A DNA stretch of 64,000 bases from Oscillospiraceae bacterium (GTDB taxonomy: Bacteria; Bacillota; Clostridia; Oscillospirales; Oscillospiraceae), in assembly GCA_015068165.1 (NCBI GenBank), contig SVKZ01000003.1:936-64935 (forward strand), read 5' to 3'. Positions 1 through 5,411 of the stretch are shown piece by piece. The notes under the pieces were generated by a model that was not told the DNA's origin, did not search any database, and saw only the letters and a program-made list of their open reading frames with translations. The position numbers and the translations under genes were made by a program. Position 1 is the first letter of the stretch. Each line of letters begins with the position of its first letter.

Positions 1-9
1 GGCGTGCCA

Positions 10-33
10 GAAAAACCGACAAGTCGGTTTTTC
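10..33. terminator. Palindromic hairpin (GAAAAACCGAC-AA-GTCGGTTTTTC), likely bidirectional terminator or processing stem
   Basis: Perfect 11-bp inverted repeat with A/T tracts on both sides. Confidence 0.55.
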
Positions 34-34
34 A

Positions 35-206
35 ACGAAATAAATCCTAACGGATTTGTGAAATAACGCTACGCGTTGTGAAATAGCTTACGCTGTGAAA
101 TGCCTGCGGGCGTGAGTGGATTTATTTCATTTCACTTTCTGCGTTAGCAGAAAATTTCACTTCGTCGAAGACGAAATTTCGCCGTGAGCGAAGCGAATGA
201 TTTCAC
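35..206. repeat. Structured heptamer-hairpin element, copy A (GTGAAAT-type x4 / ATTTCAC-type x4)
   Basis: ACGAAAT 35-41; GTGAAAT 58-64, 78-84, 95-101; ATTTCAC 129-135, 154-160, 200-206; ATTTCGC 176-182; most heptamers are separated by short hairpins. Confidence 0.85.
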
Positions 207-222
207 TCTTATCTTAATATTT

Positions 223-299
223 GGTGGGTGTAGTTCAATTGGCAGAGCACCGGATTGTGGTTCCGGGCGTTGTGGGTTCGAGTCCCATTACCCACCCCA
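223..299 (+). tRNA. tRNA-His(GTG)
   Basis: Cloverleaf; anticodon arm CCGGA-TTGTGGT-TCCGG; T-loop TTCGAGT; His identity pair G-1(223):C73(296); encoded CCA 297-299. Confidence 0.97.
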
Positions 300-338
300 T
301 AAAAAGAAAGGATACCAATCGGTATCCTTTCTTTTTAT
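299..338. terminator. Bidirectional intrinsic terminator after tRNA-His
   Basis: 18-bp perfect stem ATAAAAAGAAAGGATACC / GGTATCCTTTCTTTTTAT with 4-nt loop. Confidence 0.85.
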
Positions 339-349
339 GTGTAGGAAGG

Positions 350-449
350 AATGGGACTCGAAGATCTAAAATGCAATATGCCGGTGGCATATTGCTGCCA
401 CCAGTGCAAACACCGGTGGCTACCTTGATTAATGAGTCCCATTACCCAC
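350..449. repeat. tRNA-His-associated hairpin cassette bounded by inverted (350-362) and direct (434-449) copies of the tRNA 3' part
   Basis: AATGGGACTCGAA is the reverse complement of tRNA 277-289; GAGTCCCATTACCCAC equals tRNA 280-295; two 10-bp internal hairpins (373-395, 397-420). Confidence 0.8.
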
Positions 450-472
450 TCGGCAAAGGAACGGGTGAGAGT

Positions 473-520
473 GTAGGGGCGTTCAAAGATCGCCCGCAGG
501 CGAACTCAGTTCGCCCCTAC
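473..520. repeat. GTAG-type REP-like doublet
   Basis: GTAGGGGCG...CGCCCCTAC ends with an internal GGCGAAC-TCA-GTTCGCC hairpin. Confidence 0.65.
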
Positions 521-566
521 GGGGTCTAACGATGGGGCGCAAAGCATTCCCACAGGGGAAGGTTTA

Positions 567-604
567 GGCGGTGGAGAAATCTCCACCGCCCGGTTTTTTA
601 TTTT
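567..604. terminator. Intrinsic terminator hairpin
   Basis: GGCGGTGGAG-AAAT-CTCCACCGCC followed by a T-rich tract on +. Confidence 0.7.
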
Positions 605-610
605 CTTGCG

Positions 611-3600
611 TTAGACCTTTTTCTTTCTGTCAATGAAGAACCAGATCACAAATGCAACACCGCCGCAGAGGGTTACACCGGAAACGATTGCCACAATAAT
701 CAGCACTGTCTGCAGTTCATCGGTCTTTGCTTCCAAAGCACGATCCTTTGCTTCCAGCTCTGCCTTAACTGCCTCCAGTTCATTCTGCACAGCTTTAATT
801 GTTGCCTCTAATGTATTATAGGCTTCCTCAATCTTGCTGTTAAGCTCTGCTTTGTTGGCTGCATCCGCCGCTTCCAGAGCAACCTTTGCGGCTTTCAGCG
901 CCTCATTTAAGTCTGCGATCTTCGCTTCCAAAGCGGCATCGCCAGACTTGATAGCCTTCTTCAGCTCGGCCTTCGTGTTATCCAGGTTCTTTTGGACAGC
1001 CTTGATTGCCGCATCGAGGGTGGCGTTGAGTGCATCGACTTTGGTCTCCAGTTCCGCCTTATTTTCTGCATCAGCTGTTTCCAGAGCCGCCTTTGCTGCC
1101 GCCAGGGCAGTGTTCAGCTCAGAAATCTTGCTTTCCAGGGCAGTGTCGCCGTCTGCAATGGCTTTATCAAGCTCTGCTTTGGCATCATCCAAATTCTTCT
1201 GCACAGTCTTAACTGCCGCGTCCAGAGTCTTGTAGTTTTCGCTGATCTTGGCAGTCAGCTCTGCCTTGTCTGCGGCATCTGCGCTTTCAAGGGCGGTCTT
1301 TGCTGCTGTCAGGGCGGTGTTTAGATCGGAAATTTTGCCTTCCAGAGCAGTATCGCCATCTGCAATCGCCTTTTCCAGCTCTGCCTTAGCGTCGTCCAAG
1401 TTCTTCTGCACAGCCTTAACTGCTGCATCCAAAACCTTGTCGGCATTTTCAAACTTCGCTACAAGCTCTGCGTTATTCTTGGCATCGGCTTTTTCCAAAA
1501 GTTCCTTTGTACTTGCCAGCTCCGACTGCAGGGCTGCAATCTTGTCTGCCAAATCCTTGTCGCCGGACTTGATTGCAGCATCCAATTCTGCCGTTGCCTT
1601 ATCCAGGTTGCCCTGCACCTGAGCGATCTTCTCGTCCAGCTTCTTTTCGGCGGCGGCAATCTTTGCTTCCAACGCCTTATCGCTGGAAACGGCGGCTGCC
1701 TTTGCCTCGTCAATGGCCTTGTCCAGTTTTTCGACTGCTTTCGCAAGCTCTTCGGCGTTCTCGGTATCTGCCTTATTGAGTTTTTCTACAGCCTCTTCCA
1801 GATTCTTCTTAATTTCAGCAATTTTGTCTTCGTTTGCCTTTACCCGGCTTTCCAGTTCGGAAATTGCATCGTTTAGTTCTGTCTTGGCTGCTTTAATTTC
1901 TGCTTCCAGTGCAAGCTTCAGCGCCGCATCAGCATCGGTAGCAAAATTCTGCGCGGTGGTCTGTGCAAGGGTAATTGCTGCTTCAAGATCGCTGATTGCC
2001 TTTTCAAGGGCGGTAATGTCCGCTTTCTTTGCAATGGCTGCGTTAAGCTCAGTCTTCGCCTGGGTCAATGCGTTGTCTGCCGCGTCAATCGCTTCCTGCT
2101 TTGCATTTGCAATCGCTGTTTCAAACTGCTGCTTTAATGCGGTGTCCTTTGTATCGGCATAAGCCTTTGCTGCTGCCTCGGCAGTCTCAATAGCGGTTTT
2201 CAGCTCCTGAACCTTTGCATTTAGAGTTGTGGTGTCTGCCTTCTTGTCAATGGCTGTCTGAAGCTCGGTCTTTGCGTCGTTTACAAGGGTTTCCGCCGCA
2301 GAAATCGCTTCGCTCTTTGCTGTGGCAATGGCACTTTCAAGCTGCCGTTTTAAGGTTGCATCTGCACCCTTAAAATCATCCTTTGCTTCCTCAAGGGCTG
2401 TAATCTTGCCCAAAAGCTCATTCAGCTTCTGATTGACCGTGTCGGTGTCCGCTTTCTTCGCAATCAGCTCTTTGATTTCATCCACTGCCGCATTTAACTC
2501 TGTCTTGGTGGCATAGATGCTGCCCAGTGCATCAACTTTCTGTTCCAAGGTCTCGATGCGACTGATAGCCGTCTGCAGCTCTGCATCGGTAGCATAGCCA
2601 TCTATCGCGCTCTCAAGTGTTGCGATCTCCCCTTGGATAATAGCGATCTCGTCGCTAAGTTCTTTATCGGTTGCGAAAGTTTCGTCCAGCTTACTTAGCT
2701 TTTCTTCCAGCATTGCAATCTTAGCTTCAAGCTCTGCGGTGTCCGCAGTAGGCACACCAACCGTCAGTGCCAGCTCGCCCTCGGCAGCGGTATAGTTGGT
2801 AGTTTCGGTGCTCTGGATTTTGACTTTGATGGTAGAGCCGATCGCCACACCGTTATCAATGGTGATGGTGTTGCCTGTAACAGAGTAACCTTCGCCATCC
2901 AAAACGGTAAAGATCGTGGGATTCAAGAAATTGTCAATGGCACTGGTAGTGGGGGTGATTTCCATCACATAGCCACCCATAACCTTGTCCAGCGGCGCAT
3001 CTGCGAAAATGATGGGGGTTGCTTTCTTAATTTCAAAAGTTGCCGTTCCCTCGAAGTTGCCGCTGATAACCACGGTTGCGGTGCCTGCGTTTATATTGTT
3101 GCTGTAAGTAACAGTGCCGCCGTATGCCGTAGCATCAAACGGAATACCGCCAAGGTCAATATATACTGTGGGCTTCTGTTCTGAGCCATTGTAAACGATC
3201 TCCTCGAGAACCGAGCCTACGCTGATCTGACCTGCCGAAAGCTGAATAGGATTGATCGTCATATCGTAAGTAAGCGTAACATCGTTATAGTCGGGAGATC
3301 CGCTGATCTGAACGCAAACCTCATACGCACCTGCATTGGTAGGTGCGCCCATAAGCTGATTGCTGTTCTCATAGTATTTTATGGTAACATATCCTTCGAG
3401 CTCATCGGGCAGATTGGTAATTGTTACACCCTGCACACTCATATTGTACTCGGTGCTAAGACCGCTTATCGTAAAATCCGCTTCCGTAAGGGTAATCTTT
3501 TGGAAGGCAAAGGTAGCCGCCACGGTAACAGCCTTTGCAGGCATTGTGAACTTATTATCTGCCACAGCAACGGGATTGCCGTCTGCATCGGTAACGGTGA

Positions 3601-5371
3601 GAGAAGTCAGTGCGTAATTCTCCGCGGGGGTAACGGTAAGGGTGATGACCTCACCTGCCACCGCGTCAATGTTGCTGGCAGATACAGAGCCTTGTGCTGT
3701 TGCCGTAGGTACAGTTACGGTATAAGTAACCTTATTGAAATATTTTGGTGTTGCAGCTGCGTCGTAGTACACGGTCTTGCCAGTCAGACTGGGGTAATCC
3801 TGATTGCCGATGGTCTGCTTCCAAGCGGTGAACGCGTTTGCATTGGTGGTTCCTTGTGTTGATAGATAATATGTTACCTCACCTGATTTCACCTGCTCGG
3901 TGGTAAATGCTTCTCCTTTATAGGTATATCCCTTGGTAGAATTATACACATCCGAATCATAGGCGCAATAATTGCACGTTGTATAGTCTCCGCCAATCGG
4001 ACCAAAACGCGTACTGGTAGAATTACTCAGGGTAACAGTTGCACTGCTAAAGCAGGAGTAACAGGTTGCGTTGTAACCTGCGATACCGCCCGCAGCAGTG
4101 GTCGAACCATTATAGGTTGCAACGATTGCCATCCCGTGGTTATAACAACCGATAACTTTGGTCTGGAAACCATTTCCAACAATACCGCCAACATTGTAAT
4201 GACCGGTCGCGCTACCCCCGATAACACCACAATTCTTGATCGTATTCATATTAGAGGTGTTGCCATAACTGTAACCAACCACGCCTGCTACCGGGGCACT
4301 CGTGCTGGTAATCGTACTGTTCTCCACGAAGCAGTTTGTAACAGCATTTGTACCATCAACATACTTAAGCTGACCCACAATACCGCCTACATTCTGCGCA
4401 CCAACGGAAATACTGGCATTTTTTACGGTACAATCAGAAACGGAAGCGTCCTCAGCATAGCCGACAATACCGCCATAATTGCTGGTTGCTGCATATGTAC
4501 CGGTAATACTGCACCCGGTAGCGTGGCAGTCAGTTACATTTGCGTTGACTACAGCGCCGACCACACTACCAACGCGCGTCGGAGAACTTGTATAGGATAT
4601 GGCAACATTGGTTGCTGTGCAATTTTTGATAGATGTACCATCCAGATATCCCGCTACCGCACCAACGCCGGGATTGATTGCGGAGATCGTGCCGCCAGTT
4701 ACATGGCAGTTTTCTACAGTGGTGCCGTTCGTCATATAACCGATAATGGCACTTACACCGTACCGCGTAGAACCAAATTTGGTCGATGCAATTGAGGGAT
4801 TCTTTACTGTGATATTCTTTACTGTGCCGCCGTTGCTGTAAGCCACAAGTCCCGCAACATATTGATAAGCGGCAGAAACGACGGGGGCATCCAGCGTCAG
4901 ATTCATTACCGTGCCGCTGAGATTGCCGAACAATCCTCTGTAGCCATTGTAGCCGTAAGCCTCGGCAGGCGTAGTAGAGCTTAAATTAGAAATCGTCATA
5001 CCGTTGCCATCCAGCACACCGGCAAAGTTATTTGCTTTTGCTGTTGCAGCCGTTTGATTTTTAGTGTGATAACCGCCGATAGGCGTCCAGTTATAGGTCG
5101 CACCGGCAAGGTCAAGATTCGCACCCAGCTTAAAATAGGTGTTTGTATAGGTCGTGCCGCCATTTACATCAGCGGCAAGCTTTGCAAGCTGTTCCGCAGT
5201 CATAATGACATAGGGGGTAGCCTCCGAGCCGGAGCCGCTTTCCCACGCCTGAGATGCCGCTGTGCCATCCCAAGTATCTGTTTCCGCAGCACTTGCTGTC
5301 ATCGCAAACGCCGGGAGCATTGCTAAGACCATCACGATAACGAATATGGTGGTTAAGAATCCTTTTTTCAT
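611..5371 (-). CDS. 1586-aa cell-surface fibrillar protein: signal peptide, GLUG-like beta-helical repeats, Ig/MBG-like modules, ~700-aa coiled-coil stalk, C-terminal TM anchor
   Basis: AAGGAGG RBS before ATG 5371; MKKGFLTT...ASA signal peptide; repeated VGGIVG/GAVAG + VxNC motifs; A/K/E/L-rich helical repeats; hydrophobic C-terminus followed by DRKKKV. Confidence 0.9.
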   Translation of the reverse strand: MKKGFLTTIFVIVMVLAMLPAFAMTASAAETDTWDGTAASQAWESGSGSEATPYVIMTAEQLAKLAADVNGGTTYTNTYFKLGANLDLAGATYNWTPIGGYHTKNQTAATAKANNFAGVLDGNGMTISNLSSTTPAEAYGYNGYRGLFGNLSGTVMNLTLDAPVVSAAYQYVAGLVAYSNGGTVKNITVKNPSIASTKFGSTRYGVSAIIGYMTNGTTVENCHVTGGTISAINPGVGAVAGYLDGTSIKNCTATNVAISYTSSPTRVGSVVGAVVNANVTDCHATGCSITGTYAATSNYGGIVGYAEDASVSDCTVKNASISVGAQNVGGIVGQLKYVDGTNAVTNCFVENSTITSTSAPVAGVVGYSYGNTSNMNTIKNCGVIGGSATGHYNVGGIVGNGFQTKVIGCYNHGMAIVATYNGSTTAAGGIAGYNATCYSCFSSATVTLSNSTSTRFGPIGGDYTTCNYCAYDSDVYNSTKGYTYKGEAFTTEQVKSGEVTYYLSTQGTTNANAFTAWKQTIGNQDYPSLTGKTVYYDAAATPKYFNKVTYTVTVPTATAQGSVSASNIDAVAGEVITLTVTPAENYALTSLTVTDADGNPVAVADNKFTMPAKAVTVAATFAFQKITLTEADFTISGLSTEYNMSVQGVTITNLPDELEGYVTIKYYENSNQLMGAPTNAGAYEVCVQISGSPDYNDVTLTYDMTINPIQLSAGQISVGSVLEEIVYNGSEQKPTVYIDLGGIPFDATAYGGTVTYSNNINAGTATVVISGNFEGTATFEIKKATPIIFADAPLDKVMGGYVMEITPTTSAIDNFLNPTIFTVLDGEGYSVTGNTITIDNGVAIGSTIKVKIQSTETTNYTAAEGELALTVGVPTADTAELEAKIAMLEEKLSKLDETFATDKELSDEIAIIQGEIATLESAIDGYATDAELQTAISRIETLEQKVDALGSIYATKTELNAAVDEIKELIAKKADTDTVNQKLNELLGKITALEEAKDDFKGADATLKRQLESAIATAKSEAISAAETLVNDAKTELQTAIDKKADTTTLNAKVQELKTAIETAEAAAKAYADTKDTALKQQFETAIANAKQEAIDAADNALTQAKTELNAAIAKKADITALEKAISDLEAAITLAQTTAQNFATDADAALKLALEAEIKAAKTELNDAISELESRVKANEDKIAEIKKNLEEAVEKLNKADTENAEELAKAVEKLDKAIDEAKAAAVSSDKALEAKIAAAEKKLDEKIAQVQGNLDKATAELDAAIKSGDKDLADKIAALQSELASTKELLEKADAKNNAELVAKFENADKVLDAAVKAVQKNLDDAKAELEKAIADGDTALEGKISDLNTALTAAKTALESADAADKAELTAKISENYKTLDAAVKTVQKNLDDAKAELDKAIADGDTALESKISELNTALAAAKAALETADAENKAELETKVDALNATLDAAIKAVQKNLDNTKAELKKAIKSGDAALEAKIADLNEALKAAKVALEAADAANKAELNSKIEEAYNTLEATIKAVQNELEAVKAELEAKDRALEAKTDELQTVLIIVAIVSGVTLCGGVAFVIWFFIDRKKKV

Positions 5372-5411
5372 TATGTATTTCCTCCTTATGGAAATGATTT
5401 GCAAATTAATA

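Follow-up and report, generated by a model that had tools for sequence, protein, structure and literature searches.

The stretch of DNA analysed here (64,000 nt, hereafter the window) lies on contig C24 of a 1.39 Mb genome in 64 contigs, which belongs to the genus Faecousia (Oscillospiraceae) and comes from gut metagenomes. Close to its start a tRNA-His gene is followed by a terminator (T1), a compact module of repeated and palindromic sequence and a second terminator (T2), so that the trailer reads tRNA-T1-module-T2 (Table 1). The module begins 51 nt past tRNA-His with an inverted arm (I-arm) and ends with a direct arm (D-arm); no open reading frames were found in or adjoining it. A REP-like palindrome is situated 24 nt beyond the D-arm.

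Table 1. Features of the tRNA-His trailer and its cassette, in window coordinates.
Feature	Position	Strand	Details
tRNA-His(GUG), encoded CCA	224..299	+	ARAGORN; Rfam tRNA 56 bits; target gene
Terminator T1, perfect 19-bp stem (298-316/321-339)	298..339	.	A-run before, T-run after; bidirectional
Linker GTGTAGGAAG	340..349	+	Sequence versus relatives
Inverted arm (I-arm) AATGGGACTCGAA	350..362	+	Perfect reverse complement of 277-289, tRNA-His positions 54-66
Left motif GAT.TAAAAT(GCA), conserved, runs into hairpin 1	363..372	+	Alignments
Hairpin 1, perfect 10 bp (373-382/386-395), conserved apex CCGGTGG	373..395	+	
Hairpin 2, GCCACCAGTG / CAAA / CACCGGTGGC, 10 bp (397-406/411-420)	397..420	+	
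Right junction TACCTTGATTAAT, short form	421..433	+	
Direct arm (D-arm) GAGTCCCATTACCCAC	434..449	+	Perfect copy of 280-295, tRNA-His positions 57-72
Terminator T2, GGCGGTGGAGAAATCTCCACCGCC then T-run	567..600	+	Closes the tRNA trailer; context, outside the cassette

The original prediction, made from the letters of this DNA, had described 350-362 as a reverse complement of 277-289 and 434-449 as a direct copy of 280-295. Both matches are exact, and everything else that it stated on the sequence itself was correct, including the 10-bp pairing of the two copies with each other (350-359 with 434-443) around two 10-bp hairpins, of which hairpin 2 has one A.C mismatch (403:414; T occupies the second position in other copies). 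Both arms are templated on tRNA-His positions 54-76 (window 277-299). The I-arm corresponds to the T-loop and the 3' strand of the T-stem and stops exactly at the complement of T54 (...TCGAA), as it does in all copies, and the D-arm sequence has no further occurrence in the 64-kb window with 2 mismatches allowed; two matches were seen in 0 of 100 shuffles. Folded as a single strand, 345-455 gives z-scores against shuffles of -5.9 on the plus strand and -7.5 on the minus strand, and an alternative fold, in which the I-arm pairs across T1 with the tRNA's own 3' part (275-365), gives -11.7. T1, standing between tRNA-His and the I-arm, differs in sequence from the terminator behind tRNA-His in relatives (L013, L020, L023) and is part of the inserted unit discussed below. 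The linker appears to be a decayed complement of the acceptor 3' strand, the same stretch in relatives being an intact complement up to CCA (e.g., TGGGGTGGATAATGGGACTCGAA in L035 and L038). At the right junction, most copies have a third hairpin, which ends in ...AAAATGCAAA immediately 5' of the D-arm.

The module is one of many. BLAST with its 71-nt core returned copies on ten other contigs of the genome, nearly all directly behind tRNA genes. An inverted copy of the gene's own sequence, at least 10 nt long and located at +35 to +90, follows 16 of the 39 tRNA genes (~40%), and an own direct copy further downstream follows 19 of the 39, against 0 and 2 respectively in reversed-sequence controls. 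The layout is constant: the tRNA runs to CCA and is followed by T1 (A-run, stem, T-run), a linker of a few nucleotides, the I-arm, GAT.TAAAATGCA, hairpin 1 with its apex CCGGTGG, hairpin 2 and, at the right end, either ACCTTGATTAAT or the third hairpin, after which comes the D-arm. Throughout the family the I-arm ends in ...TCGAA or ...TTGAA, the complement of T54, and the D-arm begins at T55, C56 or G57. A covariance model, whose shortened calibration leaves its E-values rough, placed the core in 99 of 121 genomes of the genus at 0 to 21 copies each, with at least 23 tRNA species and tmRNA as hosts. Among 130 copies, taken from 80 fetched loci and the genome itself, 103 have a same-strand tRNA upstream, with the gap from tRNA end to core peaking at 43-58 nt, and the remainder lie mostly behind tmRNA 3' ends, displaced tRNA 3' fragments or contig ends.

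That the ends are templated from the neighbouring tRNA, a central claim of the original prediction, is borne out by this larger set. Over 65 tRNA-adjacent copies at 23 tRNA species, the longest exact match of the I-arm averages 11.2 nt to the cognate tRNA versus 6.2 nt to non-cognate tRNAs, and that of the D-arm 15.8 versus 5.8 nt. Many I-arms match just ~10-13 nt of T-loop and T-stem. Even within tRNA-His the arms track the gene's variants across species (e.g., ...ATTACCCAC, ...ATCACCCAC, ...ATTATCCAC). The comparison therefore came out as the prediction anticipated, with ends that follow the cognate tRNA and a core common to different tRNAs and genomes; the arms are not identical whatever the tRNA, and the core recurs many times elsewhere. 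The stem formed by I-arm and D-arm measures 6-21 bp (median ~9-10; 68 copies), and its mismatches, which are few in number, comprise 5 G:T and 3 A:C. Fold z-scores range from -5.9 to -13.9. A further class of inverted fragments, type C, copies tRNA positions 39-58.

Several familiar kinds of element were weighed and not adopted. A MITE, which would have fixed inverted termini, is disfavoured by termini that vary with the tRNA, and a retroviral-type primer-binding site by arms that mostly fall short of the CCA end or, in type C, copy positions 39-58. IS91/Helitron-like insertion after GTTC was put aside for lack of such an enzyme and because the CTTGAT motif is confined to the short variant, and class C group II introns because no intron is present.

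The sequence downstream of the D-arm bears on how these modules came to lie where they do. Of the 65 copies, 33 have a full-length D-arm running to CCA (at least 19 of 21 nt). Behind 17 of these 33 there is, within 60 nt, a perfect hairpin (at least 7 bp, with A/T tracts), which differs from T1 in 16 of the 17. At L013 the terminator past the D-arm is the one that stands directly behind tRNA-His in three other species (L020, L023, L024). Two operons have the same organization, one on contig C35 of this genome, where Thr is followed by module, D-arm, native spacer and Tyr, and one at L147, where Arg is followed by module with D-arm, native spacer and His. Since the gene's own terminator or the next tRNA of the operon follows it, the D-arm represents the 3' end that the gene had originally, still in its native surroundings, and hence a block consisting of positions ~56-76, T1, linker, I-arm and hairpins was inserted at T-loop positions 54-56. 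By comparison with relatives, the D-arm of the window is likewise the displaced original 3' end of tRNA-His, and we read its sharp stop after position 72 as a later truncation. Because the D-arm is the displaced original end in native context, the suggestion of a tiny tRNA-targeting insertion element fits.

Whole units occur in tandem behind Val on C39 (157 bp) and behind Ser on C44 (~169 bp), although all genomes used are metagenome-assembled, so that tandem arrays may be mis-assembled, and C44 contains an N gap. D-arm decay grows with distance from the gene on C8, C12, C15 and C35, and tandem units together with distal decay fit repeated insertion beside the gene. One unit, on C11, carries a cargo ORF of 218 aa, which has a promoter of its own and is lodged between the tRNA-end copy on one side and terminator plus I-arm on the other; a search against Pfam gave no significant match to this ORF. 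Turnover is evident when the tRNA-His trailer is compared between species, with type A in ~5, type B in ~10, heptamer-hairpin arrays in ~6 and nothing in ~7. Type B is related to type A, its I-arms extending up to the full complement of positions 54-76 and its hairpin 1 being a full bidirectional terminator. Across tRNAs and genomes the cassettes are mosaic: the terminator-plus-linker module, the alleles of the hairpins and the third hairpin combine independently of one another, and complete units, T1 and linker included, reappear at different tRNAs. One genome has a near-same cassette at Arg(ACG) and Arg(CCG), each with its own D-arm (L177, L196). No identical copies were found at different tRNAs, and hence no sign of a recent jump between them. 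An empty/filled ortholog of the window's own locus was not found either because synteny is not conserved, the downstream fibre gene being present in one relative only and not beside tRNA-His.

We put at about even the chance that the window module is a copy of a family of gene-less, non-autonomous insertion cassettes that act at the DNA level and settle in the 3' portion of tRNA and tmRNA genes. The cassettes are strongly folded and take up ~100-150 bases, the units as a whole 100-250 bp. The inserted unit begins at the T-loop with a working copy of positions ~56-76, its own bidirectional terminator and a short linker; next come positions 54-66(-76) in inverted copy and then two or three perfect hairpins with the conserved apex CCGGTGG. 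The former 3' end of the gene is displaced downstream as the D-arm. The cassettes would spread as DNA, with recombination or copy-choice acting at the conserved T-loop, and two routes can be envisioned. By the first, the gene would recombine, possibly site-specifically, with an excised unit that carries its own copy of the tRNA end. If circular or single-stranded, such a unit would hold one I-arm and one D-arm, and the duplex lying between T1 and the hairpins would mimic the double-stranded target; the role of the I-arm would then be to pair with the tRNA-end copy and so fold the excised or single-stranded cassette into a rod. By the second, a nascent strand would exit the recipient gene after CCA and the A-run, copy T1, I-arm and hairpins from a donor trailer and re-enter at the conserved T-loop, where the recipient's own end would be re-copied to give a D-arm that is recipient-specific at once. 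The I-arm would be matched later by quasi-palindrome template switching, which would explain why many I-arms match just the conserved 10-13 nt, and copy-choice of this sort would require no dedicated enzyme. With either route, selection or quasi-palindrome correction may keep the I-arm matched to its tRNA.

No recombinase or transposase was found in or adjoining the cassette. The genome encodes five tyrosine recombinases, of which two are Xer-like and three belong to islands or a prophage, and it has no Y1/RAYT transposase (PF01797). Cassettes of the heptamer (Gut-1) type on C11 and C35 share the right-hand hairpin and the D-arm and lack the I-arm, from which it follows that the I-arm is not needed for making the direct repeat. 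A bolder version of the insertion reading, which we think quite improbable, would have a gene-free insertion system for the T-loops of tRNA and tmRNA genes, in which the cassette folds into a rod, the duplex of I-arm and tRNA end is both target mimic and specificity determinant, a change of arms retargets the unit and host housekeeping enzymes exchange the strands, with the tRNA-linked repeats of E. coli as worn members.

The hairpins themselves bear on whether the module works as DNA or as RNA. Hairpin 1 is 99% paired in 87 distinct copies, with one G:U in ~860 cells; 9 of its 10 pairs show double (compensatory) substitutions and none a single-sided change. Over hairpins 1-3 there are 4 G:T in 1,884 pairs, whereas T1 at the same loci has 21 in 1,157 (Fisher p = 3e-6). 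Since the hairpins are almost purely Watson-Crick and the adjacent terminators are not, a DNA-level structure is suggested, and the stems appear to be kept as perfect DNA palindromes. It should be considered that strong selection on RNA stability, or a young age of the copies, could imitate wobble-free stems. Hairpin 1 with the following ATTTTA is terminator-like on the minus strand, and the module would, judging from its sequence, be shielded from transcription on both sides, given the bidirectional T1 at its left.

These observations have to be set against the idea that the module is a functional RNA of the tRNA-linked-repeat (RtT) type, made by read-through of T1, in which the terminal stem of I-arm and D-arm mimics a tRNA end, so that 3'-processing enzymes (RNase E, RNase Z or exonucleases) release or stabilise a small RNA, or in which the I-arm modulates the maturation of its own tRNA. 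We consider this rather unlikely, while recognizing that a number of features speak for it. The order tRNA-T1-module-T2 matches that of 5S-T1-RrB-T2 in E. coli rrnB, where RrB arises from read-through, is processed beside the repeated 3' end and binds Hfq and CsrA (PMC8144298). The RtT repeats of E. coli, which are transcribed, have the same inverted and direct arms; folds of either strand of the module are far more stable than those of shuffles; the apex CCGGNGG is conserved over core types and genera; and the module in the Thr-Tyr operon, which has no T1, must be co-transcribed. Set against these are the near absence of wobble pairs in the three hairpins and their presence in the true terminators alongside, as well as the position of the module behind a strong bidirectional T1 and with a hairpin 1 that is terminator-like on the minus strand, because of which most transcription would be blocked from both sides. 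Turnover is also fast, the same tRNA having or lacking a module depending on species and genomes holding anything from 0 to 21 copies. Lastly, the module matches no Rfam family, RtT included: a search of the window and 20 module loci against Rfam returned tRNA and Gut-1 only, with no RtT, ribozyme or tRNA-like family. The second suggestion of the original prediction, a tRNA mimic, consequently finds no support, as there is no tRNA-like fold and no Rfam family match and the hairpins appear DNA-constrained.

The E. coli tRNA-linked repeats (TLRs) are the precedent for this layout, one that the original prediction did not name. There are 22 copies at ten loci, and their last 18-19 bp repeat the 3' end of the upstream tRNA or 5S gene (PMC8144298). 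According to that paper, TLRs, which include RtT/rttR of tyrT-tyrV (Rfam RF00391), were described first by Egan & Landy in 1978 and catalogued by Rudd in 1999. They have "no known function" save for three copies in rRNA operons, which derive from T1 read-through and bind Hfq and CsrA (PMC8144298). That the E. coli counterparts are transcribed and processed, and that three of them act as sRNAs, speaks against our DNA-level reading (PMC8144298). In the K-12 tyrT-tyrV locus we found that each 178-bp RtT unit has an I-arm, GGGGAAGGAT, which is the reverse complement of tRNA-Tyr 68-77 and lies 60 nt past the tRNA end, then a structured core and then a D-arm, AATCCTTCCCCCACCACCA. Cassettes and TLRs alike follow a tRNA (or 5S) gene immediately and in its orientation, end in a repeat of the upstream gene's 3' end (here 16 nt in the window, and no fewer than 19 of 21 nt for 33 of the 65 copies) and may be tandem (RtT, 178 bp x 3.14). 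The likeness is one of layout alone, without sequence or covariance-model similarity; RF00391 gave no match at E <= 10 in window positions 1-700 and none at E <= 0.01 in the 20 module loci. The RtT junction lies at T-loop positions 58/59 whereas that of the Faecousia cassettes lies at 54-56, RtT has no terminator between tRNA end and I-arm and is transcribed, and the published definition of TLRs does not include an I-arm. The Faecousia family is also far larger (as many as ~20 copies per genome, at 23 tRNA species plus tmRNA) and varies between species. A mobilome-sequencing preprint reported raised tyrT-rttR coverage, which its authors ascribed to RNA/DNA heteroduplexes and not to circles. 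Our literature search found TLR papers for E. coli only and no description of such modules in Clostridia. We see in the cassette a variant of this known kind of tRNA-linked repeat, in which an inverted copy of the target is a regular component.

Integrative elements that cross over in the T-loop of tRNA/tmRNA genes, together with their gene-less derivatives (CIMEs, accretion arrays), are the second point of comparison. Williams (NAR, 2002) reportedly distinguished sublocation classes of tRNA/tmRNA integration, and CIMEs are said to have been treated by Pavlovic et al. in 2004. Such elements resemble the cassettes in inserting between a tRNA and a direct repeat that starts in the T-loop, in supplying a replacement 3' end, in displacing the old end with its terminator, in forming arrays whose outer repeats are older and more decayed, and in using tmRNA as a target. 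They differ in that the cassettes, at 100-250 bp, have no integrase or genes (apart from the one 218-aa cargo ORF), and in that a single core is used at no fewer than 23 tRNA targets in one genus. To our knowledge att sites contain no inverted copy of the target, unlike the cassette, where such a copy is a constant part. An autonomous relative with the same att ends was not found; the five tyrosine recombinases of the genome lie elsewhere, and its tRNA-Trp island has no core. Phage and plasmid collections contained no BLAST match to 345-455. A pattern scan of IMG/VR gave a single hit, which falls in the host flank on a prophage contig rather than in a viral attP.

It could still be asked whether any dedicated element is needed. 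The D-arms might be att scars of passing integrase islands or phages, the inverted copies might come from outward growth of the terminator palindrome through fold-back or template-switch errors, and the hairpins might be an unrelated REP-like repeat that favours terminator regions. The T-loops of tRNA and tmRNA genes are after all classical integrase crossover sites, and this genome does have a classical 8.8-kb island with a 26-nt repeat at tRNA-Trp; yet that island is the very one that has no core, and integrase remnants were not found beside the modules. Outward growth would agree with the fact that tRNA 3' end, T1 and I-arm make up one long palindrome, with perfect 39-bp arms in L038, and with stems that change by double substitutions only, which would suit quasi-palindrome correction. 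On the other hand, the I-arm ends at T54 regardless of the terminator, and inverted fragments of type C (tRNA 39-58) do not adjoin the palindrome. The same trailers are crowded with other small palindromic repeats, but the parts of the module are found together, with order and spacing fixed, at more than 100 loci and 23 tRNA species, and whole units with T1 and linker recur at different tRNAs. We regard this explanation as improbable.

Folded recombination sites provide a third comparison. Integron attC sites and the attP(+) of CTX phage are imperfect palindromes whose paired arms rebuild a double-stranded target site. The cassettes share with them the pairing arms, a variable sequence with conserved structure, cassette-like arrays beside a fixed site and unpaired bases (A.A/A.A) beside the junction. 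They have, by contrast, no GTTRRRY/RYYYAAC core, and their arms copy the tRNA and not a common site. No IntI-type integrase was identified in the genome; two Xer-like genes exist, but no dif-like sequence is present. The Watson-Crick-only stems are what, by themselves, point to a possible involvement of single-stranded DNA. REP/BIME sequences, RAYT-mobilised REPINs and the PATEs of IS200/IS605 are likewise short, gene-less, hairpin-forming, multi-copy and intergenic, often near terminators; they differ from the cassettes, whose termini follow the neighbouring tRNA and whose association with tRNA/tmRNA 3' ends is strict, in a genome that has no Y1/RAYT.

Arms that copy their target also raise the thought of a self-guided and reprogrammable insertion element, in which the I-arm is a nucleic-acid guide that pairs with the target tRNA gene (or the tRNA) across the insertion point while the hairpin core recruits a host enzyme or is itself catalytic. 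The I-arm does cover the junction positions 54-56 and track the target, the core is conserved while the arms vary, and the element is widespread and encodes no protein. We hold this to be very unlikely, however, considering that cassettes without an I-arm have the same right end and D-arm, that many I-arms match only the ~10-13 nt of T-loop and T-stem, and that catalysis or a partner protein is a prediction only.

TLRs have been known in E. coli for more than 45 years with no accepted origin and, for most of them, no assigned function. The Faecousia family offers the same layout, in uncultured gut Clostridia, in hundreds of copies, with many tRNA targets, tmRNA, arrays, a cargo unit and gain and loss at the species level, which gives it a comparative power beyond that of the 22 E. 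coli copies. If movement by folded DNA or in a guide-like manner is true, it would be a new way to target insertion to essential genes harmlessly, and if the cassettes act as RNAs they would represent a widespread class of tRNA-coupled small RNAs. Genome annotation is affected either way, since the cassettes create pseudo-att sites and cause "island" boundaries to be drawn falsely. The Gut-1 "sRNA" motif found alongside seems to be part of this tRNA-trailer landscape too.

The arrangement extends across the order. A terminator followed by an inverted T-arm, searched with the strict pattern GTTCGAATCC-N50-80-GGATTCGAA, was found in 96 of 401 genomes and 49 of 178 genera, with 0 for the backwards control. 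Convergent tRNA pairs are disfavoured as the source of this pattern by the presence of a single tRNA and a module at 12 of 12 inspected loci, each of which consists of that tRNA, a terminator, an I-arm, a hairpin core with apex CCGGNGG and a D-arm. Several of the order-wide loci are tandem, and their core families differ.

Behind the tRNA-Leu(TAG) gene on contig C11 of the same genome lies a cassette that carries cargo. The array opens with a Gut-1-type unit and a first direct copy of the tRNA's 3′ end. A terminator, a promoter and an open reading frame of 218 aa come next, followed by a terminator, the inverted arm (reverse complement of the tRNA T-loop and T-stem), a hairpin core of the kind found in the window (type A) and a second direct copy. 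Against Pfam the 218-aa reading frame gave sub-threshold matches only (DUF6438, GRDB). A classical island adjoins tRNA-Trp in this genome; 26 nt of the tRNA 3′ end, repeated in direct orientation, mark its limits. It encodes a 400-aa tyrosine integrase on the tRNA side and, internally, a short tyrosine recombinase of 212 aa; the hairpin core is absent from the island.

Features discussed here (C, contigs of the same genome; L, loci from other genomes)
Feature	Location	Strand	Remark
Island at tRNA-Trp	C38:32245-41100		classical; 8.8 kb
Cassette array behind tRNA-Leu(TAG)	C11:3700-5040	-	
tRNA-Arg(TCT) 3′ end	window 9		
Gut-1 RNA (RF01706) half	window 33-106	+	Rfam, 70.4 bits
Gut-1 RNA (RF01706) half	window 119-184	-	Rfam, 37.5 bits
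REP-like palindrome	window 473-520		GTAGGGGCG...CGCCC-GC(A/G)G-GCG...CGCCCCTAC
Terminator T2	window 567-600	+	strong
Fibre gene	window 611-5404	-	1,597 aa
Structured insert	C12:12160-12270; C15:5145-5255; C3, C25, C56, C64; L013		~110 nt
Type C inverted fragments	C55, C64, C53		tRNA-Pro (CGG, GGG); tRNA-Thr (GGT); tRNA-Leu (CAG)
E. coli K-12 tyrT-tyrV	NC_000913 1285800-1287800 (L213)		

The spacer between tRNA-Arg(TCT) and tRNA-His in the window is occupied by two mutually inverted Gut-1 halves, which are hairpins with GTGAAAT heptamers between them. Gut-1-type arrays with other heptamers follow the C11 tRNA-Leu and the C35 tRNA-Tyr, and at their right end stand the cassette's right-hand hairpin, ...AAAATGCAAA and the tRNA end copied in direct orientation; the inverted arm is absent from both. 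Gut-1-like matches also lie behind modules of other genera (L207, L208). Instead of being a free-standing sRNA, Gut-1 may belong among the cassettes of tRNA trailers.

Other elements crowd these trailers. The REP-like palindrome has seven copies in the genome, three of them in tRNA trailers adjoining modules (C15, C44 and the window), and its Rfam match, to sRNA-Xcc1, is weak (24 bits, E = 0.09). A structured insert (GGGAGCGATGCGACCGC...GAGCGAGTGGCCGCGGTCG...GGTACCGCAACAG), present at six loci in this genome, sits within hairpin 2 of some cassettes and is also found elsewhere; an Rfam search with it returned no match.

Inverted fragments of another kind, called type C, occupy the same site as the inverted arm, 3′ of the terminator. 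In reverse complement they cover tRNA positions ~39-58, a segment spanning the anticodon stem's 3′ strand through to the T-loop. Their two borders fall at the two crossover sites of classical integrases. Were inverted copies to arise by outward growth of the terminator palindrome, these fragments would be left unexplained.

In E. coli, every RtT unit (tRNA-linked repeat) of tyrT-tyrV repeats 10 nt of the tRNA-Tyr T-stem and acceptor in inverted orientation, and a diverged copy is also present in the tyrT-tyrV spacer; the accessible part of the published description of these repeats makes no mention of an inverted tRNA copy. The arrangement of tRNA, first terminator, module and T2 in the window, where T2 separates the tRNA trailer from the convergent fibre gene, resembles T1-RrB-T2 of E. 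coli rrnB.
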